NCBI GenBank assembly: GCA_050084515.1
Contig: CM114271.1
Coordinates: 25,730,001 to 25,794,000, forward strand
Origin: Blasia pusilla
Taxonomy: Eukaryota
DNA length: 64,000 nt
Direction of reading: 5' to 3'
How positions within the stretch are numbered: position 1 is the first letter of the stretch; the number at the start of each line of letters is the position of its first letter. Under the pieces are notes generated by a model. That model saw only the letters and a program-made list of their open reading frames with translations. It had not been told where the DNA came from and did not search any database. Shown in pieces: positions 1 through 58,484 of the stretch. The position numbers were made by a program, and so were the translations under genes.

Positions 1-2
1 TA

Positions 3-164
3 GTAGTTCCTGCAGGCTTACGTTGTATGTTGTGTGGTTCTGCCCGTGGTGCGGCCACGATGCTAGTCTGTGATGGGTGTTCGAGAGGATGGCATATGGC
101 ATGTTTGACGCCACCTCTCACTAGGGTTCCTCAGGGACGATGGATGTGTCCCAGATGTAGATAG
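3..164 (+). CDS. PHD finger at C-terminus of retrotransposon integrase (partial)
   Basis: Manual translation VVPAGLRCMLCGSARGAATMLVCDGCSRGWHMACLTPPLTRVPQGRWMCPRCR* shows the C4HC3 pattern; homologous to 11300-11446. Confidence 0.9.
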   Translation, partial: VVPAGLRCMLCGSARGAATMLVCDGCSRGWHMACLTPPLTRVPQGRWMCPRCR

Positions 165-344
165 AGAAGGTAGTTCTATATTCCGACTTGTGTCTATGAC
201 ATGGATGACAAGGAGGCGACTAACGATGGGGCCACATGAGCACCCGGCCTTCTTGCTCTTAGCGTCCGAGAGATGTATGTCATGGTAGGTAGGGATAGAT
301 GGCTATCTAGAGTTAGAGGGACCTAACCACTAGCTAGGGGGGCG

Positions 345-1119
345 ATTGGAGATATTTTGGTTCTTCTTGTCTCGTTTTTTGGATGCCATGAGTTAGCATG
401 GGATCATGCGTGTTTGTGTGTGTGTTTGGTGACAGCGATGTATGTTGTGTAGCGATGTGTATGCGCACGACAACTGTCACGTCTTTTAGGATAGATCGGT
501 GGGATCTAATAGAGCGCCTTCATGAGTAGTGGAGGACACACCCAAAGATGGGGTCGAGGTGACTGCTTTGAGGCCCTTGGAAACCTGAGATAGCAGATTT
601 CCCCTTCGTTTCGGCTCATTTGGAGCCATATTGAGGAACTTACTATTTTAGGTAAGTACCATTTTGAGTATATGATCGACTTACTATTTTTGGTAAGTGG
701 CCCTTGACCTCCTACATCAGGTCAAGAGCCAAGGAGGTGACTTGGGAGAATAGGTTACCATGGAGAGAGCTTGGGAGAGGAGAGGGGTATACCTCAAGGA
801 GAGAGAGCTTGAGAGCTCATTCTCTCTTTGTTGAACCTCTTGGCATGAGGCGGCGGAGCTATGGTACCTTGCCTTGTGAGTGTAACCCAAGCCTCTCATT
901 AGGAGAGTGGGTTTGGTTTGACATGAGAGAGAGTGCACACCTTTGAGAGCTATGGTGTGAGATGGTGGAGAGAGAGATTGGATCTTACTTTATTGGAGAT
1001 ATTTTGGTTCTTCTTGTCTCGTTGTTTGGATGCCATGAGTTAGCATGGGATCATGCGTGTTTGTGTGTGTGTTCGGTGACAACGATGTATGTTGTGTAGC
1101 GATGTGTATGCGCACGACA
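345..1119 (+). repeat. Split terminal repeats of copy 1: B1(345-472)-AC-A2(475-991)-B2(992-1119)
   Basis: The 128-bp block attggagatattttgg...gcgcacgaca occurs twice. The intervening A block starts TGTCAC and is homologous to 57233-57741 (reverse complement). Confidence 0.92.
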
Positions 1120-3269
1120 GCTTGAATCAAAAGGAGTTAAGGGTTGAATTATATCAAGTTTTAAAGGATGTCATGCATCGACATGATGTGGATGGTCGAA
1201 GGGTTGGGAGACGCATTGTATTACCTTCTTCTTTTACTAGAGGGCCACATCATATGCATCAATTGTATCAAGATGAAATGGAAATTGTAAGACATTTGGG
1301 GAAGCCAAACTACTTTTTGACAATGACATGCAATCCTAAGTGGGAGGAGATTACACCAGCCTTATTACTTGGTCAATCAGCTGTGGATAGACTAGATCAG
1401 GTTATACGGGTTTTAAGAAGAAAAAGAAGGAGTTGTTACAACTTATCATTAACAAGAAAATATTGGATCGAGTTCTAGGATGCATCCATGTTGTGGAATT
1501 TCAAAAAAAAGATCTCCTGCACGTGCATGTTCTTATTATTTTAGGCCATGAGGATAAACCACGAACCACTTTTGATTATGATAGTATTATTTCAGCATAA
1601 ATCCCCAATCAATCTACCCATCCAAGGTTGTATTCTACTGTCGCTAATTGCATGATTCACGGGCCATGTGGAGTATTAAATCCAAGTGCACCATGTATGG
1701 ACAAGGAAACCAAAAAATGTACCAAAGGCTACCCTGAGCCTTTTGCGGCTAGTACCACAGAGATGGAAGATGCTTACCTGATCTATCACAGGTAAGGAAC
1801 TTTTCATCCTAGATTATTTTTATGACTATAAGGGATATGAGGCCAATGTGATGATTTCATGCTTTGTAATTTTATTTTTTTAGATTGGAGAATGGGAGGG
1901 CGATACTTAAGCGCAAACATTCATTGGATAATCGTTGGGTTGTGCCCTACAATCCTATGTTCTGCGCGTTCTTTGATTGTGACATTAATTTGGAGAATAC
2001 AAGTAGTGTTTATGCCGTCAAGTACTTATATAAATATGTATATAAGGGGTCTGATGTTGTATCATTTAAGTTGTCAAAGGATACATCCGACACAATTGAC
2101 AGTGTTGACGAGACGACGTCATATCTTGATGCAAGGTAAGATTGTGCTAATTGATTGTTGTGTTGCATGATATTGAATTCATCAACTTTACTTCATTCTC
2201 CTTACTTGAATATTTGGAATTATTATTTTTCCAGATATATTTCTTCTTCTGAGGCATGTTGGCGACTCTTCAAGTTTAGTCTACACGTTGAACTTCCAAG
2301 TATTGTACAATTAGTAGTTCATTTTCTAGAACAACAAGAAATCTACTTCAATTATGTTGATCCTCCTCAACAAATTTTGCAACAAAATAGAGAGACAACT
2401 TTGACAAAATGGTTTGCAACCAATCTACTTGATTCCAATTCCCGAAAATATCTATATGTAGATTTTCCTTCATATAATTGTTGGAATAACAAGACATGGA
2501 TTCTTAGGGTACAAAAAAGAAATGATTGTGGCCATCCTATTGGCCGCTTATACCTTACTCATCCAGGTGAATACGCTTGATTTTGTTTTTCACCATCTAA
2601 AGTGATGTATTTATATTGGGATGAATTGATTTTTTTCACTTCTTCGTAGGTGAAGGAGAACTTCATTGGTTGAGATTACTTCTCCGTCATGTTTGAGGAG
2701 CAGCGCCATATGAATGCTTGAGAATTGCCAATGGAATATTAGGTCAAACATTCAAGGAAGCTGTTATCCAAATGGGACTTCTCGAGGATGATAGGGAAGT
2801 GTTCTCTTGTTTTCAAGAAGCTTCTATGATCCGTACATGTTCTTCACTTCGCCGTCTATATGCAATCATTCTAGCGTACAACTTATCTGCTCAACCTACA
2901 ACCTTATGGACTCAATTCTTGGACCCATTGGTGGAAGATCTCTTATATGAACGACGTTAGGTAGGAATTCATTACCTTCACTCCTTACATCATTAGTTTT
3001 ATTCCTAATAGTATCTTCTTTTGAGCATTCAAGAAACTAGTCATGATTTGGGCTTTTTCTCGAACTGTTGTATTGCAGAAAATAGGAATTCCTAATCTTC
3101 CTATTGATGACGATATCATTAATAATGCCTTGTTGTAAGTTCATTATTATTTACAAGATCAAGGAAAGGGACTATCTGACATTCCTGACATGCCCCAAGT
3201 CAATTTCCAAAGCCTTCACTCACATTCATATTTGGAGGAGCAAGAACTATTATGTGATACGGAAGAATT
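1120..3269 (+). pseudogene. Helitron Rep (HUH/Y2) domain, intron-containing, frameshifted
   Basis: Motifs GRRIVLPSSFT, FLTMTCNPKW, VVEFQKKDLLHVH (HUH), KYLYKYVYKGSD (Y2), RYISSSEACWRLF and TFKEAVIQMGLLEDD. GT-AG introns e.g. 1792-1883 and 2136-2234. Confidence 0.92.
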
Positions 3270-3637
3270 TTTCATGACCATACGGATTATGTCGTAGAGT
3301 AAAGTGTGCTAGTAGAGGCCATACCTTATGTAGGACCGTAGTGGCTAGGTAGAGATGCGGTTTTATACATAGGGTTGGGGGTTACTCAGTTGGGGGTGCC
3401 TTTCCCAGTAGGGCCCGCTCTTAGGTTGGAAGATATAGTGTGGCGTGCACCCAAAGAACAATCAGTTCTTTGAGTTGAGCCTGTTGCGTTGGGAGTTAGC
3501 CTTGGTAGTGAGTAGAGCTCTTGGCTATAATTTTTCCCGCAAGCTTCGACCTAGATTCTCCCATCGCGGAGTGGGTTTGGCTCGATTGTATGTGATTCTA
3601 TACGTGTTTTATGATAGTAGGTCTTTCAAGGATTTCA
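3270..3637 (+). repeat. A1 terminal repeat of copy 2 (direct repeat of 11728-12080)
   Basis: Colinear high similarity to A2 with one indel of about 15 bp. Start TTTCATG here versus TGTCATG in A2. Confidence 0.93.
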
Positions 3638-3649
3638 CTCAAAGAACTG
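3434..3649 (+). promoter_or_regulatory. Putative TATA/Inr promoter and self-priming primer-binding site
   Basis: TATA 3434-3437 and Inr-like TCAGT with A at 3464. cagttctttgagt (3463-3475) is the exact reverse complement of actcaaagaactg (3637-3649) at the A1 boundary. Confidence 0.75.
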
Positions 3650-4803
3650 GAGTAGATCGATGGTAGCTTCGATTGTGGATCAGTAGGATCTCGTTAGGGT
3701 TGATTGTGTACTCAGCCATGGATGTTTGTGGCTTGTGGCCTATGTTGGAGGTAGGAATATGGTGCATGGTTGATTGGGAAAGAAGCGCCTTGCTGAGAGC
3801 TTTCCAACGTGCTTTAGATCGCCGGATTTCGTCAAGGGAGTTGGAAGTTATCAAGGATTGAAGATTCTGGTTAGCGTTCGACGGTTTTCTGATGTGGAGA
3901 GCTTGGAGTGCGGAAGCTCTGTTGAAGTTCATCCAAATCGGGTGAGAGGTTCCTGTTGCTACTTGTATTGTGATCTCATGTGAAGCTATCTGCTCAAGTG
4001 TGTGGAGCGTTGCAGATTTTTGCGTGCATGAAACTGGGCGGAAGCGCTGTCGGAGACTTCGAGGCAACTCATGGTAGCTCGGGGCGAGTGAGCGTGAGAG
4101 GCGGAGTAAGGAGCAAGGAGCAAGCAAGAAAGCTTGCTTGCCTGGGCGTGAGGCAATTTTTGCAGGATTTGTGATTTGAGTGTTGCATAACTAGTCATCC
4201 ATCTTTGGGCTATTCTGCCTGGAAGACGCTTAACTGCTGAGTTCTTAACTATGCCAGTGTACACACTGGTGTAGCTCATTTGGTGCTATTTGGAGATGTG
4301 TTAGGTGTTTATGCATCTCAAGTTTTTTGGTTGATGGAACTCTAGTGCATACTATGGTGTAGCCTCTCCATGCAGATGATATTTTCAGGTGCTGCGAGTC
4401 CGACTAGCACGTCATCGACTGCTGGCGGAGTAGCTATTGCGTTAGAATTGTGTGGTGGGTTCTATGGATTCAGGGGGCGCCACGTTTGGTGGATTGTGTT
4501 ACCTTGATTTCCATTTGTGATTGGAGGGTTGTCGTTGGACTTCCTGTGTTTGGATCCCCTTCATCGTTGCTTCTTGCTTGCGCGCCCATTGTTAGGGTTC
4601 ACGTTGATTTCCAGAGTAGTGTTACTCCTGTGTGCTACCGGTAGTGAGGCTGGAGTGATGACGAGTAGACCGTGGGAGGCTTCTTGTGGTGCTGACAGGT
4701 TAGGTTGCCTACACCCATAGCTAGTAGAGCTAGAATAGTACAGCGACATCGACGTCACTTGGTTACTTAGTGGTGGTGATTTGGTGGTGGTGCGGCATCG
4801 GCG

Positions 4804-6328
4804 TTGGTCATCACGGAGCTGTCTGGTGGTTTGTTTGGGGACCGTGGTGCGGACAGTGGTGGTTTCACACAAATTGGATTGAGGTATCGGCTACCTTTTC
4901 CACTTCCGACGGTTGATGAAGAGGAGGACGAGGGTGTTCCAAACACCGAGTCTTCTACGTTGTTATCGAGTGTTGCAGCTCCATTGATTTGGGACATGGA
5001 CGGGATATATGGGGCCATGAAGGGCCCACGACGATACTCGGGTGCAGTGGGCACCATTGAGTTGGAGGACTTCCTGCAAGAGTTTGATACGTGGTGTGAT
5101 ATGCAGATGTTGCAGAACGCCACGTTGTTTACACCCTTCTTGGCTTGGAAGGGGTTGTTTCAGCACTTGGAGGGACCACCCATGGACGATAACCATGAGT
5201 TTAGGAAGGACCATGTTGCTGAGATTGAGGCGTGGAGACAATATTGGTCTCCAAGCTATGTGTCTATCACCCATGGTGGTATTGGTAGTAGTGCTCCTAC
5301 TATGCCAGCCAGCCCGACGTTGAGTGGTACGAGTACGAGCCGGATTGGGGGTACCAGTGGGGGTACTAGTGGAGGTACTAGTGCCCCACCATCATTTAGC
5401 CCGGTTGCACAGTTCTTCAAGAGGTTGAAGAAGAACTATCAAGGAGTGAAGACAGAGAAGTTGAGAAGTCTTCAGGAATTTGAGCGAAAGACTTGTGAGA
5501 GTCTTTGTGTATGCCACGCTTGATTTCAGTTACTCAGGGTGTGACTGAGGCTTAGGCAGTCCAGTTTTGGTATGGGATCTTGGACAGAGAGTTGCGCCGT
5601 AGGGTACGTGATGCTACTCTTATGAGTGATGATTCACCCACATTGACCCATGTGTTTGCTCTATCTGAGAAGATTGAGCTTAACATGGTGAAGGAGAGAG
5701 TGGTGACATCCACATTCAGTAGGGATACAACTACTACTTCTCGTGTTCAGCAGCCCACCTCACAATCTCGTAGTAGTGGTGGTGGTAGTAGTAGTGGGAG
5801 TCGTGGGGGGTACACACGACGTTAGTCAGGTCCTAGAGGGACACTTTGCAGAGACCATTGCCTTCATTTGCTGCCCTGCAGCAAGGACATTCATGTTGGA
5901 CATGTGGAGGTCTTCATGTTAGGAAGTTGTGTCCCCAAGAGGATGGGAGACGGACTTTGGAGGATGGGCCTCAGTCGGCCCCAACTCAATGTGATCATTG
6001 CGGGAGACCAGGTCATCCTCGAGAGCGTTGGTTTGATCTTCATCCAGAGTTAAGATCAGGCCGCGGCCGTGGTGGAGTAGCTCCGAGAGGCCGAGGTGGT
6101 AGAGGTGGTAGGGGTGGTAGAGGTGGACTAGTGGTTGGAGAGCCTACAGTGGCTACCCCTACCACTACGACAGAGTCAGCTATGGCTTCCAGGATTGAGC
6201 AATTGGAGCAAAAGTTGGCTACTATGGCTGGTATCCAGCATATATCAGGTTCGGGAGCAGGGGCTTCCACCTCTTATGGAAGGGATGATCTCTCTTATAT
6301 GGCGAGTGCAGCACAGGTTGAGGCATGA
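4804..6328 (+). pseudogene. gag-like polyprotein with two Zn knuckles and RGG repeats
   Basis: Segments IELEDFLQEFDTWCD, CWTCGGLHVRKLC, CDHCGRPGH and RGRGGRGGRGG; interrupted by stops. Confidence 0.8.
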
Positions 6329-6439
6329 GCTGCAGTTACGAGAGGAGCCACTCGAGCGTCAGAGCCACGTGATGCTATTGTGGAGTTGGACCCATAGAGG
6401 GGTGAGGCTGGGAGGCAAGCTAGGCTTCCCCAGTCATTC

Positions 6440-7516
6440 TTGTTTTCTGAGGTGCTTAGGACTCCATCCATGGTTCCTACGCACCCTATTGAGCCGACAG
6501 TGGGGACTGAGGCATCTACATCGCGTGTAGTAGACACGGATGCAACATCCAGTGCAGTATTACGGATGGAAACTTCAGTGTTGGGATCCCCATTGTTTTC
6601 GACCACGGAACTGATGGCTTTAGGAGTTGACTTAGCTCCTGTATTTCAGCTAGCAGCCACGTTGTGTGAACGTGGGGGTATTATTGCTACACATGATGAG
6701 GTGGATGAGGGTGTTACGGTGGAGCGGCCCTCTATATCAGGTGTAGCATTGAGTACCAGTGCTACTTGGCAGGCAGCAGCGGTGAAGATGGATGCATTAC
6801 CAGCCCGGCCAGCCATTGATCGTGAGAGGCTTACACCTTGTGTATATATGTTGGACAACCGGAGTGGGATATTTCGATTGGTGAGTCCTACAGGACAAGT
6901 GTATAGACCAGATAGAGTATTGTTAGACTCTGGTGCCCAACCTTTGATGTTGGGAAAGGCGGCATGTATTGGTTTGGATATTCGGAGGTTAGAGCTTGAG
7001 CCTTGCCCATTCCAGATTCAAACATCACTTGGAGGAGCCAATAATAGGTCTCAATTCACGACACGGGAGAAGTTTTCTGTACAGTTGAGACCAGATCATG
7101 CGACTGATAGCTCCCGGTTGGGAGTACCTACAGTGGTCATATCAGCCGAGTCGTATGATGTACTAGTTGGAGGAGCAGTATTGTACCCGATGGGTTTTCA
7201 GATGGATTACTGGACTGAGACAGCGTCTTATACACCTGGTTGGCAGTGTGGGGATGGACGTATGAGCCAAGTTCCTGTGAGATTTATTTATGGGGCTCGA
7301 CCAGGAGGGTCTTCCCCAACAGTGTTAGCATTTGTGGCTAGTTTTAGTGGAGTAGTCACTTGGCCAGGAGACTTTTTGGAGGGTAATGTTTCTGCTATGG
7401 ATTCTCCTGTGCATGAGGAGGTCCCTAGTTTTGCAGTAGTGGCATCCTCATCGTTGGATGTGCCACTTTGGAGTTCAGGCGGTGCACTACAGCAGGAGGT
7501 TGATCGCCTAGTGTAG
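6440..7516 (+). pseudogene. Retropepsin aspartic protease region
   Basis: RVLLDSGAQPLML (D-S-G) and YDVLVGGAVL. Confidence 0.85.
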
Positions 7517-7603
7517 GAGGCTTGGTGTGAAGCTGTTATACCTCACAAGAAAAAGGAGGCCCCACGGCAGAGTCCTACTTCTGGTCTAGTTGGGTTATCC
7601 CCT

Positions 7604-8070
7604 TTGGATACTACACCCATTGTATGGCAGTATCCGCCGGAGGGCATTTGTGTGTTAGATCTCTTTGGTGGGATTAGCACTGGTTTGGTTGCAGTGTCGC
7701 AGGCCGGTATTCCTGTGCGGAGATACGTGTATGTGGAGCGAGATGAGACGGCCCAAAGAGTCTCATCCCGACATATTGGTCAGTTGATGCGGAGATATCC
7801 TAAGTTTTTGCCACCATCATCTATTCGTGGGTACCAGCGTGCTTTGCCGTCACACATTGTATTGTTGGGGGCGCAGGACCTTAAGAGGGTTGGTCCTGTG
7901 GATTTGGTGATTGCTGGATGGCAATGTGCGACAGTTGGTGGAGCCTAACGCTGATGAGAGAGAGCGTGCGATGGGATTTGCTACTGGTGTGACAGCCGTT
8001 GCTTCCATTTCTTAGGCTTCACGACGTCATGTGTTGGGTCAGGCCATAGACCTGAATTCTTTGACTTGGA
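7604..8070 (+). pseudogene. DNMT3-like cytosine-5 DNA methyltransferase domain (internally deleted) within pol
   Basis: Motif I VLDLFGGI, motif II YVERD, motif IV DLVIAGW.C. A deletion then joins to motif IX EPNADERERAMGFATGVT and motif X RRHVLGQAID. Confidence 0.85.
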
Positions 8071-8332
8071 TTTTGAGTCTTGGTATGGCCGAGCAGCGTC
8101 GACTTCGGACTATGTCTGTGGGTCTTCCACCCCTTGTAATGAGCTCGATGGTTATTGGGATGGTAGAGGCATCGGCTGGGGGTGAGGAGAGTAGTATTTT
8201 GCATCCTTGGAGTGAATGGAATGTAATGGCTGGGCATGTGGAGTTGGTTGCTCATGCTGGTGGAGGGTTATTTGCTCAGATGATGGTGTAGCTAAGGGTG
8301 TACCATCTTGTGAGGGGGTTGCGTAGCAGCCA

Positions 8333-9800
8333 ATGGCATCATCCTCTCCCTCTAGTGTGCCAGTGGAGGAGACTTGGGAGCCATTACTTGGGCCCAAGCT
8401 TACGGGAGGTGAGAAACGACGCTTGACACAGTTCCTACATTCTTATAGGAGTTGTTTTGCCTTTAGCATGAAGGATTTGGGTGCTCTGGTTGGACTCGGT
8501 ATACGGATTGAGTTGGCTAGTGATACACCAATCTTTCGTCGTCCCTATCGATATAGTGATATGGAGAGGGACCTGATTCAGGGTAGGACGTTAGACCTTT
8601 TGGAGGCTGGATTAGTGGAGTTGTCGCATGGAGAGTATGCATCAACCACTGTTATGCCTGCTAAAAAGGATATGCATGGAAACTACACGGATAGGCGGAT
8701 GTGTGAAGATTACCGTCCTATCAATTGGCAAACCAAGACCGATAGGTATGCCATGCCTACAACTGAGGAGATCTTTGATGTGGTGGGACAGGAAAAGATT
8801 TTCAATACTTTGGATCTTCGGGCACGATACCATCAATTGCCGATTCGGGAGAGTGACAAGGCCAAGACAGCATTTTGGGGTGTCAACTCTCATGGCAAGG
8901 ATTGTTTGTACCAGTGGAAATTCTTACCCTTTGGGTTGAAGAATGCACCTTCCGAGTTTCAGAGAGTGATGGACAGGATCCTAGCAAGGTTGGATTTTGT
9001 TCGGTGTTACATTGATGATATCTTGGTGTTCAGTAATATGGTCGAGGAGCATCAGATATATTTGCAGATGGTGTTTGAGCGGTTGAAAGCTCATGGTCTA
9101 CGTTTGCATCCGGGAAAGTGTAAGTTCTTCCATGAGGATGTTGAGTACTTGGGTCATGTGATCTATCCAGGTGGTTTGGGAGTTCAGCAAGCAAAGGTGG
9201 AGGCTATTGCACTTATTCCGCGTCCGGTAGATGTGAGTAGAGTTTGGGCATTCATGGGATTGGCGAACTACTATCGGAGGTATGTGAAGGGATTTAGTGC
9301 TATGGAAAAGCCTTTGAACCAATTGCTGAAATCAGATCAAGAGTGGCACTCGGGAGATGATCAGGAGAGAGCTTTTGTGGAGCTTAAGGCCCAGTTGGTG
9401 GCGGCGCCTATCTTGAGGAGACCTATCGAGGGCGCCCATTTACATTACACATCGATTGGAGTAGGTTGGGACTTGGAGCGGTGTTGACACAACATGATGA
9501 TGAGCACATGGAGTTTGTGGTGGCCTATGCAAGTCATTCGAATAATGCAGCGGAGTCGCGCTATATTTCATATGAGGGAGAGTGCTTGGCAGTAGTGTGG
9601 GTTGTGGCACACTTTAGGTGTTACTTGTTTGGCACACAGTTTACCCTTGTTACTGATCACCAGCCGCTCAAGTGGTTGATGGAGTCTGACAAGCTTATAG
9701 GGAAGCTTGCACGGTGGGTTCTTATCTTATAGGAGTATGACTTCTAGGTGGTACATAGACCTGGAGTTGCCAACCTTGATGTTGATGGGTTGAGTAGGAA
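8333..9800 (+). pseudogene. Ty3/Gypsy reverse transcriptase + RNase H
   Basis: RMCEDYRPIN, LDLRARYHQL, LPFGLKNAPSEFQRVM, YIDD, YLGHVI, YEGECLAVVW, TDHQPLKW. Confidence 0.95.
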
Positions 9801-10026
9801 CCCATGTACTAGCCAAGAGGATGCAACTGGGGCTAGATGGCATGGCAAGGTTGATGAGGAGGTGGTGCCAGGTTGGCATGCATCTGCCTTTTTATGTTGG
9901 TTAGGGGTGGACTCTAGTATGGAGGACCACATGACATCTTACTCTAGTCAGAGGGTAGATGGCCATCCTTCATATCCTTAGGTTAGAGATGGTGGTACGG
10001 ATCAGCGTGATATTCATGATGATGCG

Positions 10027-11446
10027 TTGGTGTTGGAGTTCCTACGGACTAGTAGGGTGCCAGGCATATTGAGTGCCAAGGAGCGAGACCGTGTTCTTCA
10101 ACGTGCTAAGAGGTATCGATTGGAGGGAACACATATTCTCCGTGTGTGGGAGGATGGTAGAGTACGAGTAGTGCCGTATTTGGCTCAGAGAGAGCGCATT
10201 GTGCGACATGCCCATGAGGAGTTGGGACATTTTGGGGTAAAGCGTACGTATAGCTTACTCCTTGGTCAGTATTGGTGGCGTGGCATGCAAACTCAGGTGC
10301 AGCAGTTGGTGTCACGTTGTATGGTTTGTGATTGGGTGAGGGCATCATTCAATGCCCCTACACCACAGTTACACCCCTTGCCTATTATGGGGTTGGGTTA
10401 CCGTTGGAGTGTGGACTTTGCGGGACCGTTACCGTTGATTGTACGACATCATCGATATGTGTTGGTGATGGTGGAGCACTTCTCCAAGTGGATTGAGTTG
10501 GTGGCATTACCTGACAAGGAAAGTGAGGGAATGGCGTACGCGTTTCTTGATAGAGTGCTTAGTCATTTTGGTGCACCAGCTGAAGTGTTGACCGACTAGG
10601 GTACAGAGTTTCAGGGTGAGTTTCAGGTCTTGTGTGACAAGGCGTTGATTGATCATCGGACCACATCTCGAGATCATCCAGAGGCGGATGGTTTGGCTGA
10701 GCGTGTGGTTCATACGGTGAAGAGGGCATTGCGCAAGCATGGCCTCTGAAGGGCATCTTGAGACAGGATATTCAGTTGCCATGGTTAGCCATGGGGTATA
10801 GGTTCAGTCGCCAAGCATCCTTGGCTTCCTTCTCACCTTATTTTTTGTTATACGGCCGAGATCCAGACTTGCCAGCATCAATTTGTCGGGAGTCTAGTGA
10901 GGTGGTGAACCTTGATGACCTAGAGATGTGGATGAGGGTGTGTTCTCAGCGGGCAGAGCTCTTTTGGAGAGTTATGCCAACAGCCTTTGAGAATCTTGCC
11001 ATTTCTCAACATAGAGATACGTTGCGGTATGCAACAATTCGAGGTGGAGGTTATCGACCATCGATTCGTAGGTTCCATGTAGGGGACTATGTCTATTTGC
11101 AGCAGATTGCACCGACAACGTTGGATGTGACGGCAGGCCGCACTATTTTACGAGTGCACGAGGTGTTAGCTTCTGGAGTTCTCATGTTGGAGGGTCGTGA
11201 TGGAGTTGTTTGGAAGGACCATGTGCGTAATTGTGCGCCATGTCATCTTCCAAATGTGGATATCTTATTGACCCAAGCTTAGCCATGATACGTGCTAGCT
11301 TGAGGTGCATGTTGTGTGGGTTTGCTAGTAACGCAGCCCGTATGTTGGTGTGTGATCGGTGTTCTAGGGGTTGGCACATGATGTGTTTGACTCCACGTAT
11401 GGATGTTGTTCCTACTGGAAGGTGGGTTTGTCCTCGATGTATTTAG
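10027..11446 (+). pseudogene. DDE integrase with C-terminal PHD finger
   Basis: HHCC (HEELGH...CMVC), WSVDFAGP, VLTD*GTEF, DGLAER, PYFLLYGRDP, then CMLC...CDRC...H..C...WVCPRC. Confidence 0.93.
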
Positions 11447-11619
11447 GAGAGGTAGATGACTTGATCTTTGTATGATATGGATTACAGATGTGCGACTAAC
11501 GATGGGGCAACCTAGCACCCGGCCTTCTGATTCGTGCACCCACGAAGGTGTATAGCATGTAGTAGATGTATAGGGCTACCTGGGAGTTAGAGGGACCTAA
11601 CCGCCAGTTAGGGGGGCAA

Positions 11620-12186
11620 GTTGTGGTACACTTATGTTTGTGGATGCTCTCGTCTATGTTATGTATGTATATGAGTATGGTATGTCAACGATGTATGTTG
11701 TATGACGATGTGGATTCGCAGGACAGCTGTCATGATCATATAGATTATGTCGTAGAGTATAGTGTGCTAGTAGAGGCCATACCTTATGTAGGACCGTAGT
11801 GGCTAGGTAGAGATCCGGTTTCATACATAGGGTTGGGGGTGACTTTCCCAGTAGAGCCCGCTCTTAGGTTGGAGGATATAGTGTGGAGTGCACCCAAAGA
11901 ACAGTCAGTTCTTTGAGTTGAGCATGTTGCGTTGGGAGTTAGCCTTGGTAGTGAGTAGAGCTCTTGGCTATGGTGTTTCTCGCATGCTTTGACCTAGATT
12001 CTCCCATCGTGGAGTGGGTTTGGCTTGATTGTATGTGATTGTATACGTGTTTTATGATAGTAGGTCTTTCACGGATTTCAGTTGTGGTACACTTATGTTT
12101 GTGGATGCTCTCGTCTATGTTATGTATATATGTGAGTATGGTATGTCAGCGATGTATGTTGTATGACGATGTGGATTCGCACGACA
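11620..12186 (+). repeat. Split terminal repeats of copy 2: B1(11620-11725)-GC-A2(11728-12080)-B2(12081-12186)
   Basis: The 106-bp block gttgtggtacac...gaca is duplicated around A2. The B1-A2 junction is the palindrome GACAGCTGTC. Confidence 0.93.
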
Positions 12187-13790
12187 AATTATTTGAGCAA
12201 GTACAATTGGGAGAAGCATGTCTGAATGAATAACAACGTGTTATTTGGGATGCTATACATGATGAGCTTGATCAAATATGCATAAATGTTCCACCATCTT
12301 CAAAAGTATTTTTCATCGATGGTCCGTGTGCAACAGGAAAGACATTTCTATATAATCTTCTCCTTGCAAGCGTAAGGAGTGCGTATAGCATTGGTTGTAG
12401 CATCATCTGGAATACTTGTTTTATTGTAAGATGGAGGACGTACTGCACATTCGCGTTTCAAGATCCCCATCAATCTTCATGAGAGCTCTACTTGCAAGTA
12501 AGTGTCATTAACCACTTTACATGCAATTGTATTGATACATAAAGTTTAATTATTCCAATTATTACAACTTCTAATTTATTTTCCTTTGTCATTTATAGTT
12601 TATGAGTCGATGGTGATGGAGCATGCTTAATCCGTGCGAGAATGCTCATTATATGGGACGAAGCACCTATGACTCATTGTCATGCATTCGAGGTTGTGAA
12701 CCGTACTTTACAAGATATTATGGGAGTTATTTCTGATGATCTACGGCAAATACCATTTGGCGGAAAATTTATGATATTTGGTGGTGACTTTCGTCAAGTG
12801 TTGCCAATTATTCGTCATAGGGATCGACCACAAATCATCCAAGCTACCATAAAGAGATCACCTATTTGGTCCAATGTAAAGGTCATGAAGTTGAAAACAA
12901 ACATGTGAGTTCAAAGGTTGGAAGGTCATTTACGTGTTGAACAACAAGGTTTTGCTGATTGGTTATTGGAGGTGGGTGAGGATTGTGTACCTTTGCATCC
13001 AAATTTGGGAGAAGATTTCATAAAATTACTATCTAAAATTGTTACTGATAGTAATAAGATATCTGATCTTATTGATTTGATCTATGGCAATTCTCCTAGC
13101 CAATTCCAAGACATTGGGTTCTTGAGAAATACAACTATTCTGACTACAAGAAATAGAGATGTTGATGACATAAATACAGATGTTATGTCTCGATTTCTTG
13201 GACATGTAATCTTTTAACCTGCATACATCTTCTACATGGATTTTTTCTCTTAGGTTTTAGGATTTAGGATTGTTTTACTGACTGTCTTTACTAATACATT
13301 ATTGTTTCTCACGAATTTAGTACACATTGTACAGGAGCATATTTACCTCAGGGTCAAGTCTATTCCAAATGAGGGGATGAGTCATATCTATCCAACGGAA
13401 TTTTTGAACACATGCTTGCCTTCTGGACTACCTCCACATCGTTTAAATTTAAAGATTGGTGCACCAATCATGCTCTTACGAAATATGAATGGATCACAAG
13501 GACAAGCAAACGGGACGAGATTGGTGATTCGTGGATTTATGCAACATCATATAGATGCCAAATTATTACCGGGAAGAATATTGGCGATTGAGTTTTTATT
13601 CCACGGATTCCATCGGATTCTAGTCTGCCATTTGATTTACGCAAGTTTCAATTTCCTATTCGCCTAGCTTTTGTTATAATTATTAATAAGTCTCAAGGTC
13701 AAGCTTTGCAAAAGGTTGGCATTTACTTGCCTACTCATGTATTTTCTCATGATCAATTGTATGTAGCAGTATCCAAAATAGGGAAGAGAA
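12187..13790 (+). pseudogene. Helitron PIF1-like helicase domain
   Basis: [77 protein letters not shown]. Confidence 0.93.
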
Positions 13791-15845: not shown

Positions 15846-16519
15846 TTTTTATCAAAGTGCATCATTTTCTATGAGCGGCACCTTATTAGTTATAGCCCAT
15901 TGGGATACGTTTCACACAAAAGAAACAACTGAAGCGGAGCGGTACAAAACGTGAGAAAGCTCCCCGAACGTCCGTAACTTTTACAACGGCCCCAGAAAGC
16001 GTTAGAAAAGTCGGGGAAACTTTTAAACATTTAGCGGCAGCGCTAACCGCACCGATCTGCAGTGTTCTCCACGTGGCGACGAGGGGTGCAAGCACTTGCT
16101 TTCCGGGATGTGCCGTGTTCCGGAGCCCAGTACCGCCTCGATTCGCGGCGAGCCGTGCGCAGAGCTTGTCAGCAGTGCAGGCCCGGATCCGTTGGATTCC
16201 AGGATGGTCTAAAGGATAATACTGTCGACGGAGAGAATCCGTCTCCGTCGTCCATCCATCAATGATGAGCCGGATTTCCGATATGAATAGAGGAATGATT
16301 ATTTATTAATTAACGAAAGAAACAAACAACATAAAACAAAAAAATCATATCTTTGGCATCTACGCCTACAGCGCCTGTCTAGACTGAAGTCGACAATGGA
16401 CTGCTGCAGCGGCTCCACCTCCTTCCCAACGCTTTTCCCGTTCCTGCCAAACTCGGCCGGAGACGCCAGCTCCGATCAGCGGCTTGTCTTTGGCTATTTT
16501 TGTCCGGTGGGGCAGGCAC

Positions 16520-16640
16520 AGCCCTGCCCTTACGGATAGGTTCTTGTATGACTCCCTATAATTTGGAGAGAAAACGAGCATAGCCCTGCCCTTACGGGTA
16601 GGTTCTTGTATGAATCCCTCAAATTTGGAGAGAAAATGAG
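16520..16640 (+). repeat. Tandem duplication of an approximately 62-bp unit
   Basis: gccctgcccttacgg.taggttcttgtatga...aatttggagagaaaa.gag occurs twice. Confidence 0.9.
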
Positions 16641-18600: not shown

Positions 18601-19808
18601 GGCATTTCCAGCTTCTCGCGAGGTGGATGTGCGCAATGATCGGTGAGAACCGAGGTTCCTTGTATAGCCGGCGGGTTGTCTTTGATCATTTCAATTTAAA
18701 GAAACTAATTGCAAATGAGGTATATCTTTCTCTTTCGTAACAGAAAGTAGGAATTTTATTTACTAGTGTGAGGACGTGGATTTAATCGTCTTTCATAATT
18801 AATTCTCAAACTTTTCAAACGTAATTTTTAAATTAAACGATCTCAGTCAGTATTATTGATGGAAAATGCCAAATGCTCGAAAGAGAGTGTATGCAACCCG
18901 AAGAGGCGTTGTCCCATGTTAATATAAATTAAGGGATTTTCAATGAGGGTGAACCTTTTGTGATTATATAGTAAATGGGGGATGAATTTCGTTGAACACG
19001 TCGACAGAATAAAAGTTTACATTTGAACAGGGTTTTGCGGGCCCTAACTAGCAATACAAACTGAAGTAATGCAGCTGCCGGGAACGCATCGGTACCTGTG
19101 CGTAGCGTGCTTACTCCAGTGGAAACTTGTCAGGTATGGCAGGGCCTCTAACGCAAGTATAAGGAGAGGTTGTAGCCCAGCATTGGTTCAAGTCGTGGCC
19201 TTTATGATCAGGTTGGACGGTGCGGAGAGGGAAGGTCTACACACTCGCACAGTTGGAGGGTTACACGTTGTATACCGAGAGCTGACCATACGAGGTCGAA
19301 GTGATTGACATCATATATAATGGGCGAGATCTACCCATCAGTTCAAGGACTTGGGTTGAAATATATAATATTTTACTTTATTTTATTCTTTCGTCCTTTG
19401 TCGCCAATCAATCACAATCTACGTGGAGCTGTTTGGGGTGTTCCCGATACACATTCCTCTGTGCAGTGCAATAGGTTGCTGAATGCGTCTGTCGAACAGT
19501 TACGGTGTGAAACTCCAAATTCTCATATCGTAGCTGTTGGACACATTCCCCAGAAAACCAGAGAGGAAAAGAAAGATAACGAATACGATAAATAAAAAAC
19601 GCGATATAATTGATTCTCTTCTGGGGGGGTGATATTTCCATTTGTAACAATAAAATGGTTTACAGAAGGGACGGCGATGACGACAGTAGGTAGAAATCCC
19701 TCGCCATCCATCCCCACCCCACCCGGCTCTAGAGTATCCCAGGCCAACTGTGTAAGCGAGGACTACGCTAACCTACCCTACGCCCCGGATCTGCCTTGGC
19801 AAAAATGC

Positions 19809-22800
19809 TCACTTGGCGGCAGCAAGTTCTGCCCGCAACTGCTTGGCGGCCGCCACCAGGTTCGTGAGCGCTGGGACGACTTCCGCGTACTTTCTGGTCT
19901 TCAAACCGCAGTCGGGGTTGATCCACAGGACCTTGGACTCGAGGACGTCCAACATCTGCACAGAACAACCGGGAGGGTGTCAACGGCATGTTTACCGGGT
20001 ACGTGGCGTTCTGACCGTGGGCCGATAGAAAGGAAATCACAGCAACTGCCCTCAGAGCCTGGATGGAAGAGAACCGCGACCCATTCCTCACCTTGCGAGC
20101 GCGGTCAGCCATCTCCTCCGTGGGAGGAATACGTGGGGAGTGGATGTCGTAAACTCCTGGGCCGATTCCAGCGGCGTACTTCACACCCTCACGGAAAACT
20201 GAGAGTAGCTTCTCGTCGGACCGGGAGTTCTCGATAGTGATGACATCGGCATCCATGTCGATGATGGAGTTGATGATGTCGTTGAAGTTGGAGTAACACA
20301 TGTGGGTGTGGATCTGCACCACACATATCACGAGTAAGACGACTAGATTTGTTTGGACTCGTTCGGAGTCGGAGATCAGTAGCTTCAACTGTTGGGAAAT
20401 TTAGTCACATTGTGACACTCGAGAAACAAGCACGACGTTCGAGGACGAACCTGAGTCGTGTCTTTCACTCCGCACGTGGTGATACGGAATCCGTGGACCG
20501 CCCAGTCTTGGTATGCGGCTTGCTCGGATTTGCGCAAAGGCAGACCCTCCCTGAGAGCAGCTTCGTCAATTTGGATAACCTGATGGATCGGAAACATCAC
20601 CGCGTCAAGGTCATGTTCCGTGAACACCAGAGAAGAGACGCATTGGTGGTGAGGTGAACGGAGTAATGATAAATTTCGGTGTGTTCGAGTTCACTGGCGA
20701 ATATATTCAACAAAGAAATTTGTCAAGGATGAGAACCTACCGTGATGCCGTTGGCCTCGAGGTCCTCAACTTCGTCCTTGATTGCAAGGGCAATTTGCAT
20801 GGTGGTCACAGACCTGTGAGCACGCCAAGGGTTCTGGTTAATTTTGTATTGCACATGACGAAGACAATTCCGATGCTAAACGCGAGTCCACGCAACGAAT
20901 CCAGGAATCTAGTAACAAGAAAAATGTACCTGGGTTGATCGTTCCTGACGAAAGACCAGTTCAAGATTGTCACGGGTCCTGTGAGCATTCCCTTCATGGG
21001 TCGAGAGGTCAAACTTTGAGCATACTTCGACCAGTACACGGTCATGCTGGTTGGTCGGCTAACGTCACCGAAGATAACTGGTGGCTTCACGCACCGGGAT
21101 CCGTAAGATTGCACCCAACCGTTAGCAGTGAAACAGAATCCTTGGAGTTGCTCACCGAAGTATTCAACCATATCGTTCCTCTGCAGCAGCGACAAGCATT
21201 CAGTGTTTTTTTAACTGACGTTCGATAAGAAAATCTATGAACGCTTCAAAGATGTTAGCATTACTAGCATTTATATGATATGGCAGAAGTCGTCATTGCT
21301 GGCGAATCCTGATTCTCCAAACCAAACGGTCTTCAAAGATCGAAATTGTCCGCAATGTAACTCACCTCTGGTTCTCCGTGTACGAGGACATCAAGGTCCA
21401 GTTCTTCCTGCAGCTTCACCACACTCTGGATCTCCGCCTTGATAGCCGTGATGTACTCTTCCTCGGTGATCCTGAACCAAGAGCAACCCGCCAAAATATG
21501 AGGAGACCATTTCTTGCGGGGTATTAACCATAAACACTCCATGTTTTATATCAGCATGCTCAATGGATAATTGAAAGAAAACTGTTAGAATGCGTTTCAT
21601 AAACGAGGAGGAATGGATATGAGCTTACTTCTTGCTCTTGACCTCACGACGAACACGGCGCAACTCAGGAGTCTGGGGGAATGATCCGATAGTCGTAGTG
21701 GGCAATATAGGGAGGTTCAGCTTCTTTTGTTGTTCTTCTAGACGTTGGACCACAGGTGTAGCCCTACGATGATCGGAAGAATCCAGGTCCTTGATCTGCA
21801 TTCCAAAATTCATTCACGACAGATACGTCTCACATTTGAAACTGGAGAAAAATATTGGCGGATCTGATCTACCTTCCCGGATACTCTCGAATAACACGAC
21901 TCCCGTCTTGGACGAGTACACTGCATGCTGTGTTGCACGCTGTGTTACTTGTCCATAGATTCTCAACTAATGGATGCAGAACTTACGGCTTTCTTGACTG
22001 CATCGTTGTGAACTCGGGGAGAGCTCTTCCTGCTTGCTTGGGCAGCAGCATTGGTAGCGAAATACTCCTATGGCAACCAAAACGTGGCAAAGTGAGATTT
22101 CCTCCCTTCAACTGTGAACAAAAGCAACGTACGAGAAGAGGCATCAAAACAAGGGTGCCTCCTTACCAGGCCGGTACTGCGACTCACCTCATCCTTCTTG
22201 CCCTCCAGGGCGTTGGCCAAGGCAACGACCTCGTGGACCTTTTGTGCGGCGAATGCCATCCACGACTTCATCTCTTCGTCGAGTTTGGTTTCGTTCTTCA
22301 GGTCAAAAGCGGTGTGGAGCAGAGAGCAAGATGTGGACACTACGACCTTGTCTGCATGACAAACGATGGAAATTCAGGATCTACAACCGAAGATATCTCC
22401 AGAAGGAGACTTTCGACGAGTACTCATTGGCGAAAGCACCTTAGGACGCCATTTACCTTTCCCCAGAGCGGCCACCAACTCCTCCAGGAGAGTCAGGGAG
22501 GCCGACAAGTCGTTGGCCCAGATGTTTCGGCCATCGACAACACCGGCGTGAATTTTCTTTCCTCCATTACCGAATTGCTTCACGAGCTCCAGAGTCTGGG
22601 GGCCACGTACAAGATCCACTCCAATTGCGGTGACGTACTCCAAACCGATAAGAGTCCTGTCACCAATGACGTGAGAAAAGGATACCTGACGAGCTAACGA
22701 CCCAGGTGAGACAAATCACGGCATGATCAAAGCAAATTACAGGTAGGGTCAACACTGCAGGGCAGAAAGTGAACTCACTTAAAAGCTTCAGCAGGAAGGT

Positions 22801-36432: not shown

Positions 36433-39400
36433 TGTAACTCTCTAGCTCACGGAACCACTCTAGAGTTGCTCAAAGGTAGAATGCCCTCAAGGCCTCTCCT
36501 CTTCCTTTATATACTTAGAGATAGGTACAATGAAGACAAATTAGCTCTACTTATCCTTATGCCACATGTCCTACTCTTATAGTAGGAGAGGATCTCCTTT
36601 GGAGTCTAATGTCCCAACCTCATCCTTATCTTCCTTTTCACCAACCAATGGCCCCACTCTCATCTTTATCTCTTATATCTTGTCTTTTCTCTTTTTGGTT
36701 GATTCTTTCCAGATTATGCGCTTCATGTCATAGATTCTAACTAAACTATGACTAACAAAGGATGGTTACAAACCTCCCCCCCCATTTAAGACACAACGTC
36801 CTCGTTATGAGAACTTTCAAACTCTTGCACTATTAATGGTGCGTTTGCCAAGTTGGCCGAGGATTCCCATGTGGCCTCAAATAGTGGATATCCTTTCCAT
36901 TGGACCAGATATTCAACTCGTTGGTGATGAGCTCCTCGAGTGTATTTCTTCAAGAAACGATCCACTTTAAAATCTTCATGATCTTCGACTATTTGAGGTA
37001 GTGGTGGAGTGACAATATTATCCTTAAATCTCTCAGGGCGTGGAATAAACTGTCGAAGAAGAGAGACATGAAACACAAGATGGATTTTCATATGCATCGG
37101 TAGGTCTAGCTTATACGCCACGACACTCACTTTTTGTAGGATAGTGAAAGGCCCAATATAGCGAGAATTAAGCTTACGAACTCCTACTAATGATAAATTG
37201 GTTGTTGCTAACCAAACCTTCTCCCCTTCAAAAAACTTGACATCTTGACGATGAGCATCTGCATGTTGTTTTTGTCGAATTCGGGCAATAGCCAACTTCT
37301 CCTTAGCAAGTTGAATCCCTTTCTGAATTTGGTCCACAAACTCATTAATTGCAGCTACCTTTGTAGTTTCCCTCATACTTTTTCCTATTCGAGTGAGACT
37401 AGAAGGAATTGAGGGATGCTCGCCATGCATTAAAAAGAACGGTGTGGTCTTAGTGGAAGAGTTCATGGAGTTATTGTATGAGAACTCTATTAAGGGTAAT
37501 AATGAGTCATATCCTTGTTGATCCTCCAGTGTTAAGGCGCGTAGCATATCCTTAATGGTATGGTTGGCCCTTTAAGTTTGTCCATCAATTTGAGGGTGAT
37601 AAGCCGTAGACATGACTAGTTTAGTTTGGAGAAATCCGAATAAAGCCTTCCAAAATAAACTTGTGAAATGGATTCCCCTATCAGTGACAAGCACTTTAGG
37701 AAGACCATGATGGACAAAGAATGTCTCAATGTAAATCCTATCCAACTCTGATGTAGTGACAATCTTCTTGGTCGGACGAAGGTGTATCATCTTGCTTAGT
37801 CTATCCACAAAGACCACAATAGAGTCATATCCCATGATTGTACATGGTAGCTCACAAACAAGATCCATAGTGACTTGTTCCCAACATTTTTGAGGTTTTG
37901 TGATCGGCTACAACAGTCCTGTTGGTTTTGTGTTACTAGCCTTGATTTGTTGACAAATCCTATAACCCCTTACATATACGTCAACATCTTCTCTCACTTT
38001 GGGCCAATACTATGCCCTTTGTAATCCCTTTAAGGTTTTTTCAGCTCCCATATGACCCGCAATGATTGTGTCGTGAGCTTCAGATAATACTTCAGTGCGT
38101 AATTGTGGATCTTGTGGGATCCATACTTTACCTTTATGGAAAATCAATCCTTGAGCCTTGTATACTCTATTGGCATGAATAGCAATTGCAATTTCTTCAT
38201 CCTCCTTTGTGGTTTTGGATAACTTTTTCCACCAACTAGAGTGAATCTTCACTTCAAATATATTATTCATCTATGATATACGAGTCAAGGCGTCTGCCAA
38301 CTGCTTCTTTCCTTCAATATAGACAATTTTCATCGCCATTATGTCCATCGAATTTGACGTTTGGAGAGGTCCTTTTGGGCCTCTAAGTAGACCAAGGGCT
38401 TGTAATCAGTCTCCACCACAAACTCCTTATCGCCCAAGTAATGTTTCCAATATTTGGTTGCCAAAACAATAGCAAGTTCTTCTTGCTCAGTTGTATGGTA
38501 GTTTTGCTCAGCTGGCAATAGTTTACGAGAAAAGAAGGCAATAGGATGCCATCCATCCTCCCATTCTTATTGTAGTACTCTTCCAATGCTAGTAACTAAA
38601 GCATATGTGGCCAATTTGATGGGTCGATTAGGATCATACCACTTCAAAATAGGGGCTTTGATCAAGGCATCCTTTAATGATTGAAAATAAATCTCTTGTG
38701 ATGTGCACCAATTCCAATTTTGTCCTTTCCCTAGTAAAACTCTTAAGGATTGTGCAATTTGAGCAAAACCTTTGACAAATCTTTGATAGAATCCTATTAA
38801 CCCTATAAAATTGAAGATTGAGTTTGATCTTTAAATGTACTCCATTTTTTTATTGCTTCTACCTTCTCACTCATCACTTGAATATCTTCTGCGCTTACTC
38901 GATGCCCTAGATAATCAACTTCTGTCTTACCGAACTCACATTTTGAAGCTTTAGCATACAACTCATTATCTCTTAGGATTTGAAAGACTTCTCGTAGATG
39001 ATTTATATGCTCCTCTATCATTTTACTATAGACTAAGATGTCATCTAAGAATACAATGACAGACTTGTCTAAATATGGACGAAAGATATCATTCATTAGG
39101 CCCATAAAGGTTGCAGGTGCATTAGTAAGACCAAATGGCATGACTAAGTATTAAAATTATCCATACCTCGAACAAAACACACCACCATGTAAGGCTCTTT
39201 ACCGCTTAGCTCCAAGAGAATTAGAAGAATGCAAAGCCCAAGTGCAGGAGATGTTGCAGAAAGGATTCATCCAACTAAGCGTCTCGCCATATGGAGCCCC
39301 TGTCCTTTTTGTGAAAAAGAAGGATGGAAGCATGCGACTGTGTATCGACTATCGAGCACTAAATCAACAAACAATAAAAAACAAGTATCCATTATCAAGA

Positions 39401-46396: not shown

Positions 46397-46572
<176 letters not shown>

Positions 46573-48751: not shown

Positions 48752-48752
<1 letters not shown>

Positions 48753-48817
<65 letters not shown>

Positions 48818-49019
48818 GCAAGTTTTGGCAAAGCTTATAAGAAGCTACTCATGAAGCTCAATCACTGAGTGAACGTAGATCCATAGTTTACACACACTCA
48901 TAAATGGGAGGGCATATGCAAATGGTTTCTTTGTAGGAAGAAATAGGAATACATCTCTGATCCCTAGTAAAATGAAGCTAGTTGTTGAGGTTACCAATGA
49001 GGGTGAGATAGTGTATGGA

Positions 49020-49051
<32 letters not shown>

Positions 49052-49059
49052 TGAGTGAG

Positions 49060-49147
<88 letters not shown>
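48753..49147. repeat. (CT)n 48753-48816 and (GT)n(GA)n 49021-49147 microsatellites
   Basis: Direct observation. Confidence 0.97.
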
Positions 49148-49149
<2 letters not shown>

Positions 49150-50547: not shown

Positions 50548-50829
50548 TTGGCAATTGGAGACGAGGTTTTCTTGTCGTGAAATAGGAAAGGGTGGCAGCA
50601 TGTAGGTAGAGGCAAGATATCAGGCCTTGCTGGCAGAGACAAATGCCTTGGTAAAGTAATACCACTAGGAGTTGTTAAGGTGGACATTTTGATAGTTTTT
50701 GATCATGATGCTGAGCTACCTTATCCAAATATGTAGGATGACCCACCACAAATATTGGTGGTTGATGCTTTAGGTACTTCAATATTGTGGTCGGAGAGGT
50801 CATGCAAGAAAACTATTCCTGTTCCTTAG
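50548..50829 (+). pseudogene. C-terminal domain of CACTA second ORF (TnpA-type)
   Basis: GRGKISG...IPLGVVKVDILIVFDHDAELPYPN..DDPPQILVVDALGTSILWS resembles the plant CACTA ORF2 C-terminus; contains 2 stops. Confidence 0.6.
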
Positions 50830-57741: not shown

Positions 57742-58003
57742 AGATTTAAGGCATCATTTTGTTGTTATGGACTATGAATGGAGCGAATGGACAAGAACAT
57801 GAGATTTGCTTAGTGACTCTGGGATTTAGTTGGATTATTATAGATGTAGTACTTATCGCCGGAAAGAATGTTGGATTTAGAGTATATATCCTACATATCC
57901 TATTGATTGCATGTGATTGAGGTTTATGTTAAGATTTGTGACAATTTCAATTCCCTATCCATTTTGCCTTTGCAATGATAATCAATAAATCTCAAGGTCA
58001 ACC

Positions 58004-58484
<481 letters not shown>

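Follow-up and report, generated by a model that had tools for sequence, protein, structure and literature searches.

The DNA analyzed here is a 64,000-nt stretch of Blasia pusilla contig CM114271.1 (the window, whose positions serve as coordinates throughout), which contains three copies of a retrotransposon that, to judge from its sequence, is of the Ty3/gypsy family, with a DNA methyltransferase (DNMT)-like domain and a C-terminal PHD finger. The copies were defined by repeat finding and by BLAST of the window against itself. Copies 1 and 2 lie on the plus strand and copy 3 on the minus strand, and in all three the parts occur in the order A-body-B-NN-A-B, where A and B are repeats (A1, A2, B1 and B2 by order of occurrence) and NN is a dinucleotide.

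Element copies, repeats and coding content

Copy 2 alone is complete, extending from 3270 to 12186 (+). Its non-coding features and flanks are as follows (PBS, primer-binding site; U5 and U3 are used in the sense of long terminal repeats, LTRs):

3266..3269 (+): left target-site duplication AATT, identical to 12187-12190
3270..3637 (+): A1, the 5' terminal repeat, which starts with TTTC and contains the predicted RNA start, with a TATA at -29
3463..3475 (+): self-primer segment at which the genomic RNA is predicted to begin, a 13-nt perfect complement of the PBS
3637..3649 (+): putative self-priming PBS, its first base being the last base of A1
3650..11609 (+): body, a coding region broken by stops and frameshifts
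11610..11616 (+): polypurine tract (PPT) AGGGGGG, 3 nt before B1, in a block conserved between subfamilies
11620..11725 (+): B1, with GACA at its end, 102 of its 106 bases equal to B2
11722..11731 (+): GACA-GC-TGTC, the abutted-ends (att-like) site, a perfect 10-bp palindrome
11728..12080 (+): A2, with TGTC at its start
12080..12081 (+): A2/B2 junction (U5 end to U3 start), one A shared
12081..12186 (+): B2, the 3' terminal repeat, with GACA at its end
12187..12190 (+): right target-site duplication AATT

Copy 1 is truncated by the window start, so that its 5' end lies outside, and its element end is at 1119, where an earlier note on this DNA had placed the end of B2 at 1122. Copy 3 is broken by nested insertions at 36433-42211 and about 44580-51766. 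Stops and frameshifts are found in the copies. The parts of copy 1 (1..1119, +) are:

3-161 (+): PHD finger
336-342 (+): PPT
346-472 (+): B1
473-474 (+): dinucleotide AC
475-992 (+): A2
993-1119 (+): B2

Those of copy 3 (57741-35179, -) are:

57741-57233 (-): A1
57402-57390 (-): self-primer complement
57233-57221 (-): PBS
35951-35945 (-): PPT
35941-35816 (-): B1
35815-35814 (-): dinucleotide AG
35813-35306 (-): A2
35305-35179 (-): B2

Within each copy, the repeats compare with each other as follows:

Copy 2, A1 and A2: 330 matches, 23 mismatches, 15 gap columns
Copy 2, B1 and B2: 102 matches, 4 mismatches, 0 gap columns
Copy 1, B1 and B2: 124 matches, 3 mismatches, 0 gap columns
Copy 3, A1 and A2: 436 matches, 71 mismatches, 3 gap columns
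Copy 3, B1 and B2: 109 matches, 17 mismatches, 1 gap column

The joint between A2 and B2 (12080/12081, 992/993 and 35306/35305 in copies 2, 1 and 3, respectively) is exact, with no base gained or lost in any of the three copies. In copy 2, the similarity between A1 and A2 stops at the same base where that between B1 and B2 starts, and one A at the joint is assignable to either side. A complete B-NN-A is present once per copy, internally, and the element ends hold A (5') and A-B (3'). Two identical LTRs at both ends of an integrated copy were not found, nor was B present before A1 in any of the three copies in the window (A1 being visible in copies 2 and 3). The layout is that of split direct repeats, A1-[ORFs]-B1A2B2 (ORF, open reading frame), as in the DIRS order and Ngaro.

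The copies fall into two subfamilies, copies 1 and 3 being about 83% identical and copy 2 representing the second. Over most of the coding DNA, copy 2 shares 67-70% identity with copies 1 and 3; no similarity is detectable between its A repeat and theirs. The subfamilies have in common the final ~50 nt of B and, in A, the opening bases (TGTCA), the rest of A not being conserved. The repeat parts conserved in this way, the end of B and the start of A, are as would be expected of integrase binding sites. Also, the conserved 3' part of B (11680-11725 in copy 2, and the homologous B ends) carries a pair of ACGATGT(A/G) units spaced by about 20 nt, which sit just inside the GACA end and are candidate subterminal integrase binding sites.

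The body of copy 2 encodes, in order, a gag with a zinc knuckle, a protease region and the following domains:

7517-7948 (+): DNMT-like region, by BLASTP to a Marchantia protein
8327-9487 (+): reverse transcriptase (RVT_1), by Pfam, the longest intact ORF of the element
9388-9732 (+): RNase H (RT_RNaseH), by Pfam
9982-10749 (+): region of Integrase_H2C2 and rve, by Pfam (matches at 9982-10599)
11231-11443 (+): C-terminal PHD finger, by Pfam

The order of reverse transcriptase, RNase H and an integrase with a DDE (rve) domain is that of Ty3/gypsy elements, and homologues carry the same set. Among the matches listed for the reverse transcriptase ORF, the best are from Calypogeia fissa (77%) and Marchantia polymorpha (78% and 68%), further relatives occur in Closterium, Klebsormidium and Chara, and many combine reverse transcriptase, RNase H, rve integrase, H2C2 finger and PHD finger; a C5 DNA methylase (PF00145) is found in 19 of the 120 homologues among these matches. 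Liverwort proteins among them have reverse transcriptase, RNase H, DNMT, rve and PHD domains. ORF 7517-7948 is 58% identical to residues 351-475 of Marchantia P0003, in which the PF00145 match covers residues 460-529. Pfam gave no match on the decayed DNMT-like ORFs of copy 2, the link to DNMT being the BLASTP alignment to the Marchantia protein. At 7925-7948 the ORF reads AGWQC where the Marchantia homologue has AGWPC, the PC of which we take to be the methyltransferase catalytic motif, and the frame breaks shortly after; the methyltransferase of copy 2 is predicted to be dead. The coding strand has an excess of G over C, with a GC skew of +0.22 to +0.28 in copy 2 (4000-12000) and of -0.22 to -0.25 in copy 3, which lies on the minus strand (40000-44000).

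The abutted ends and the putative priming signals

In all three copies, B1 is followed head to tail by A2 across exactly 2 bp (GC, AC and AG), as the earlier note had claimed, and the comparison of spacer length that it proposed gives the same value in 3/3 copies in the window. Its reading of the copy 2 site as a perfect palindrome (GACA at 11722-11725, GC at 11726-11727 and TGTC at 11728-11731) and of copy 1 (+) as GACA-AC-TGTC (469-478, with AC at 473-474) also holds. The homologous junction of copy 3 (-) is AATA-AG-AATC (35819-35810), which has the same 2-bp spacing when aligned to copy 1. Among the copies the spacer position varies (GC, AC or AG) in a context that is otherwise homologous.

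The same half-sites recur at the outer ends of the element. Copy 2 begins with TTTC (3270-3273), which is TGTC with one change, and ends with GACA (12183-12186); copy 1 ends with GACA (1116-1119), its 5' end being beyond the window; and copy 3 begins with TGTC (57741-57738) and ends with AACA (35182-35179), again with one change. The earlier description of the outer ends as GACA and TGTC lacking the dinucleotide is therefore correct as to the spacer, which is absent at all five visible ends, and needs amending as to the motifs, since two of the five ends carry one change each.

Two occurrences of the motif GACANNTGTC were counted in the window, where 1.31 would be expected, and 37 of 100 shuffles had at least two. 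The count of this motif was rejected as evidence, not being above chance alone, and would fit a palindrome that is a functionless chance feature. Its location, by contrast, is not explained by chance: the two exact matches and the degenerate third site all fall precisely on the boundary between B1 and A2, and the halves of the site are the termini of the element. Independent copies have the site at homologous positions, which refutes the chance explanation, and we give that explanation practically no credence.

At the other side of B, the 5' edge of the repeat lies 3 nt past a polypurine run in all three copies (AGGGGGA in copy 3 and AGGGGGG in the other two). This run closes a block of about 34 nt upstream of B1 (11585-11619, 311-345 and 35976-35942) that is almost invariant between the subfamilies, though their coding DNA is only about 70% alike, and that may contain other signals besides the plus-strand primer.

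In both copies with a visible A1, a putative 13-nt self-complementary PBS begins at the 3' edge of A, and in copy 2 the similarity between A1 and A2 stops exactly at the first PBS base. The internal complement of this PBS lies 175 nt (copy 2) or 170 nt (copy 3) before the end of A. The two subfamilies have different 13-mers, each perfectly paired, and a 13-nt complement was reached by shuffled A sequences in 0 of 2000 trials for copy 2 and 1 of 2000 for copy 3. In four of the five A copies, those that keep the internal 13-mer exactly, a TATA motif precedes it at a distance of 29 or 31 nt, and the fifth copy has one substitution in the 13-mer; in copy 2 the distance from TATA to the 3463-3475 segment is 29 nt. 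RNA folds pair the 13-mer with the putative PBS, the copy 2 segment being paired in both the minimum free energy and the centroid folds. A 13-nt self-complementary PBS at the edge of A would be the signature of self-primed reverse transcription, with the transcript start predicted at the internal 13-mer. As for a tRNA-type PBS, no match starting with TGG was seen by eye at the A1 edge, and a TGGTAGC... sequence 24 nt downstream in copy 2 was rejected, as it is off the repeat edge and not conserved in copy 3.

Since the PPT precedes B and the PBS follows A, we infer that B-NN-A is the LTR in the reverse-transcription sense, with U3 probably extending from B through NN into the first part of A, and R-U5 corresponding to the last ~175 nt of A. 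A+B was also considered as the true LTR, but A1 is followed by sequence unrelated to B, and it is B-NN-A that the PPT and PBS flank, so that this option was rejected. As in Ty3/gypsy elements, the PBS adjoins U5, the PPT adjoins U3, the ends are TG...CA and a short duplication is present, yet the termini of the integrated element are not the LTR edges. Lying inside U3, B1-NN-A2 would be copied by reverse transcriptase in each cycle, so NN would be inherited and not drawn from flanking DNA, the copies differing by point changes only. For the same reason, the earlier view of B1-NN-A2 as the circularization junction does not stand, and the joint that would mark circularization is A2/B2.

Insertion sites and the proposed route of integration

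Copies 1 and 2 are both hosted by a decayed Helitron RepHel gene (1120-3269 and 12187-c.13840, +), which consists of Rep (1125-2957) and a Pif1-like helicase from about 12230, with only 2.1 kb between them, from the end of copy 1 at 1119 to the start of copy 2 at 3270. This spacing could reflect a target preference of the PHD-bearing integrase, or merely a transposon-rich region. The Helitron Rep ORF 1125-1475 was used as query, and 15 long matches were then aligned to the window by tblastn. Ten of the 15 RepHel proteins align to 1125-2957 and resume at 12126-12297. Because the Helitron protein alignments stop before copy 2 and resume after it, copy 2, B2 included, reads as a single insertion into one RepHel gene; three of the tblastn high-scoring segment pairs run a few tens of bases into B2 and were taken as spurious ends. 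Copy 2 is flanked by the AATT duplication given above, and the flanks of copy 3 are ATCT and ATAT.

These data bear on the possibility that the layout arose after integration, by recombination of tandem or nested canonical copies, or is a repeat misassembly. The region is indeed full of nested transposons. However, the same permutation and the same 2-bp spacing are found in 3/3 copies, from two subfamilies and at unrelated sites, copy 2 cleanly splits one Helitron gene with a 4-bp duplication, B was found upstream of A1 in none of the window's copies, and the layout has been independently reported for Klebsormidium (PMC5890265). We regard such a rearrangement as very improbable.

The TG...CA ends, the short duplication and the encoded H2C2 and rve integrase point to DDE-type strand transfer rather than to a recombinase. 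To our knowledge, insertion by a recombinase is not expected to leave a target duplication. A Ngaro/DIRS mechanism, in which a closed circular cDNA would be recombined at B/A by a tyrosine recombinase acting in trans, has in its favor that A1-[ORFs]-B1A2B2 is the defining layout of Ngaro, which has a tyrosine recombinase 'instead of the rve-INT' (PMC8547959), and is called typical of DIRS (PMC5890265, Fig. 1e legend). In contrast, tyrosine recombinase (PF00589) was found in none of the 120 homologues among the matches listed, according to precomputed domains, and is absent from the element ORFs scanned with Pfam, where rve is present; the TG...CA ends and the 4-bp duplication at copy 2 also disagree with this mechanism, which we judge to be extremely improbable.

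We lean towards a route in which the integrase would cut the internal abutted-ends site of a circular, 2-LTR-type intermediate, and consider it fairly probable. Transcription would proceed from A1 to A2, the minus strand would be self-primed as in Tf1, the plus strand would start at the PPT, and standard strand transfers would yield a linear cDNA B-NN-A-body-B-NN-A, this form being expected because the self-primed PBS is at the end of A and the PPT at the start of B. The ends of the cDNA (A end and B start) would then be joined, giving a 2-LTR-type circle with an A/B joint; such an end-to-end joined intermediate is proposed because the PPT and PBS make B-NN-A the LTR, yet an A2/B2 joint exists. 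In one of the two LTRs, the DDE integrase would cut each strand of the palindrome 3' of its CA, making a double-strand break in one step and leaving recessed CA-3'OH ends with 2-nt 5' overhangs, which is the geometry of 3'-processed retroviral ends. These recessed ends would be inserted with a 4-bp stagger, the cut LTR would be split into A1 and B2, and the uncut B1-NN-A2 would pass the site on to the next cycle.

Circular permutation of the expected cDNA, with reopening at the NN of the upstream LTR, yields the chromosomal order A-body-B-NN-A-B, and all four repeat boundaries would be accounted for by this route, which is further supported by the presence of the same architecture in 3/3 copies from two subfamilies. 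The earlier suggestion of an integrase working on abutted ends within a joined molecule gains real support from the positions of the PPT and PBS, and the encoded integrase is of the DDE type (H2C2 and rve). The idea that the cut replaces retroviral trimming loses some of its contrast, since a cut at CA-NN-TG would presumably mimic 3'-processed ends.

A linear intermediate, (NN)-A-body-B-NN-A-B-(NN), is an alternative that we find unlikely. It could be made, for example, if reverse transcriptase switched templates end to end, from the end of U5 to the start of U3, in place of a ligation; the integrase would trim or use ordinary linear ends, and the internal B-NN-A would have no role other than that of template for regenerating the ends, like the internal complementary region of DIRS. 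The A/B joint, exact in 3/3 copies, is easily explained by a templated or polymerase-made joint, the 2-bp spacer has the length of the dinucleotide removed by retroviral integrases, and integrases of the retroviral type normally use linear ends. However, with the PPT preceding B and the PBS following A, the canonical cDNA ends are fixed at the start of B and the end of A, and we found no standard strand transfers that place B after A2 or remove B before A1, nor any series of ordinary transfers that gives the observed order without uniting the cDNA ends. The A/B joint would still need these ends to be united, so that the two routes differ only in how and when this happens.

Several observations weigh against the cutting of a joined circle as proposed. 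Both the formation of the circle and the cut are deduced from sequence. The copies are only three, all degraded and one without its 5' end, and the internal site of copy 3 has four of its eight half-site bases mutated. As a 2-LTR circle has two equivalent palindromes, the product A-B-NN-A-body-B would be expected about as frequently as the observed one, and it was found in 0/3 copies in the window (P = 0.125 under 50:50, n = 3), a sample too small for this absence to be informative. Evidence for the target duplication is thin, with one 4/4 match and one 3/4 match; no Helitron alignment cleanly reaches 3269 or 12187, so that the 4-bp duplication is unconfirmed in that way, and the reading frames across the empty site fit the removal of 4 bp, a weak indication in a decayed ORF. 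Also, the RNA folds were begun at the predicted RNA 5' end, chosen by the analyst, and their z-scores are weak (-0.74 and -1.91), so that they contribute little.

Known systems and neighbouring features

In textbook accounts, linear cDNA is the form from which LTR retrotransposons and retroviruses integrate, and 2-LTR circles are usually seen as dead ends. If the proposed route is correct, circularization would be a required step, circles could be tested as integration precursors in a natural system, and the element would show in what way an internal palindrome can serve as substrate for an integrase. The DIRS/Ngaro repeat layout would be explained by ordinary LTR reverse transcription. Also, annotation tools that seek LTR pairs will misread split-repeat Gypsy elements. 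More tentatively, and with slightly more doubt than belief on our part, the DNMT/PHD lineage of streptophyte Ty3/gypsy elements (liverworts, Klebsormidium, Closterium) may integrate obligatorily from a joined 2-LTR-type circle, its DDE integrase making a restriction-like 2-nt staggered cut at the att palindrome in U3. In that case split direct repeats, regarded as diagnostic of tyrosine-recombinase retroelements, would be the footprint of circle-based integration, which either enzyme class could serve, and the lineage would bridge LTR and DIRS/Ngaro elements and would be a eukaryotic counterpart of bacterial copy-out-paste-in insertion.

In Tf1, the self-primer is 11 nt long. The present element would resemble Tf1/sushi in having a putative PBS directly 3' of U5 that is complementary to the predicted start of its own transcript and not to a tRNA, and differs from them in that those elements have ordinary LTRs and integrate by linear cDNA ends, whereas here the integration ends lie inside U3. 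Predicted self-priming in the Tf1/Sushi, Tcn1 and TAR groups is described in Neumann 2019 (PMC6317226), some plant lineages being included in the prediction.

A putative relative with this layout is KnitGypsy-Dnmt3 of Klebsormidium nitens, whose repeats are arranged as in DIRS and whose domains are those of Gypsy (de Mendoza 2018, PMC5890265, Fig. 4c legend). As far as that description goes, both elements have a Gypsy-type Pol, a DNMT in the polyprotein and A-coding-B-A-B repeats, the Blasia element agreeing in domains as well as in layout, and they differ in that the host of the present one is liverwort-like. PPT or PBS placement, a 2-bp junction, a target duplication or an integration model are not described in the portion of that paper available to us, and in a literature search, mostly at title and abstract level, de Mendoza 2018 was the only work found to describe this layout with an integrase, and no account of a mechanism was found. 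The layout in an integrase-bearing, DNMT-carrying Gypsy element is thus already in print, and the placement of PPT, PBS and TATA is new here. With Ngaro and PAT-like elements (DIRS order; PMC8547959), the element shares split direct repeats and an internal copy of the joined termini; unlike them, it has H2C2 and rve, TG...CA ends and a 4-bp duplication.

Integrases of PFV and HIV-1 have been reported to cleave palindromic LTR-LTR junctions of 2-LTR circles (Delelis 2005, 2007), giving processed ends. The likeness to the present element would lie in a DDE integrase and an internal palindrome of abutted CA...TG ends, the cut being here a predicted one. In retroviruses, the palindrome is made by ligation and the circle route is at most accessory, whereas in the present element every LTR encodes the palindrome, and the circle would be an obligatory route, since it is the ends of the cDNA that are found joined in the chromosomal copies.

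A parallel with bacterial IS3/IS30 transposases had also been drawn. Short spacers separate the ends in such insertion sequence (IS) circles, 2 bp in IS30 and 3 bp in IS911, and the spacer of IS3/IS30 circles is captured from flanking DNA. The parallel holds for the abutted ends and the short, fixed 2-bp spacer, and fails for the origin of NN, which would be inherited and not captured from the flanks. IS3 and IS30 are bacterial DNA transposons whose circle is made by the transposase, whereas here the circle would come from reverse transcription and end joining; the element does not have a spacer from flanking DNA, its spacer lying inside the LTR. Transposases acting on abutted ends in copy-out-paste-in minicircles are described for the IS3, IS30, IS21 and IS256 families (PMC3299598).

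Of the two interruptions of copy 3, that at 36433-42211 (-) is an ordinary LTR retrotransposon, with repeats at 36433-36771 and 41883-42211 that are 83% identical and an ORF (36789-37571) encoding a Tf2-type SH3 and the chromodomain of a chromovirus integrase. The second, at c.44580-51766, is about 7.2 kb long; Pfam searches on five of its ORFs gave no match. It contains long (CT)n runs (46378-46611 and 48719-48856) and a compound repeat (48952-49184), with which (GA)n-type runs at 57931-58489 form inverted repeats.

Elsewhere in the window, ORF 19771-20400 (-) matches Meth_synt_2, the catalytic domain of cobalamin-independent methionine synthase (E = 4e-31), and is probably a host-gene exon in a GC-richer stretch at about 18-26 kb. 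A 62-bp unit is tandemly duplicated at 16516-16639, with 90% identity between its two copies.

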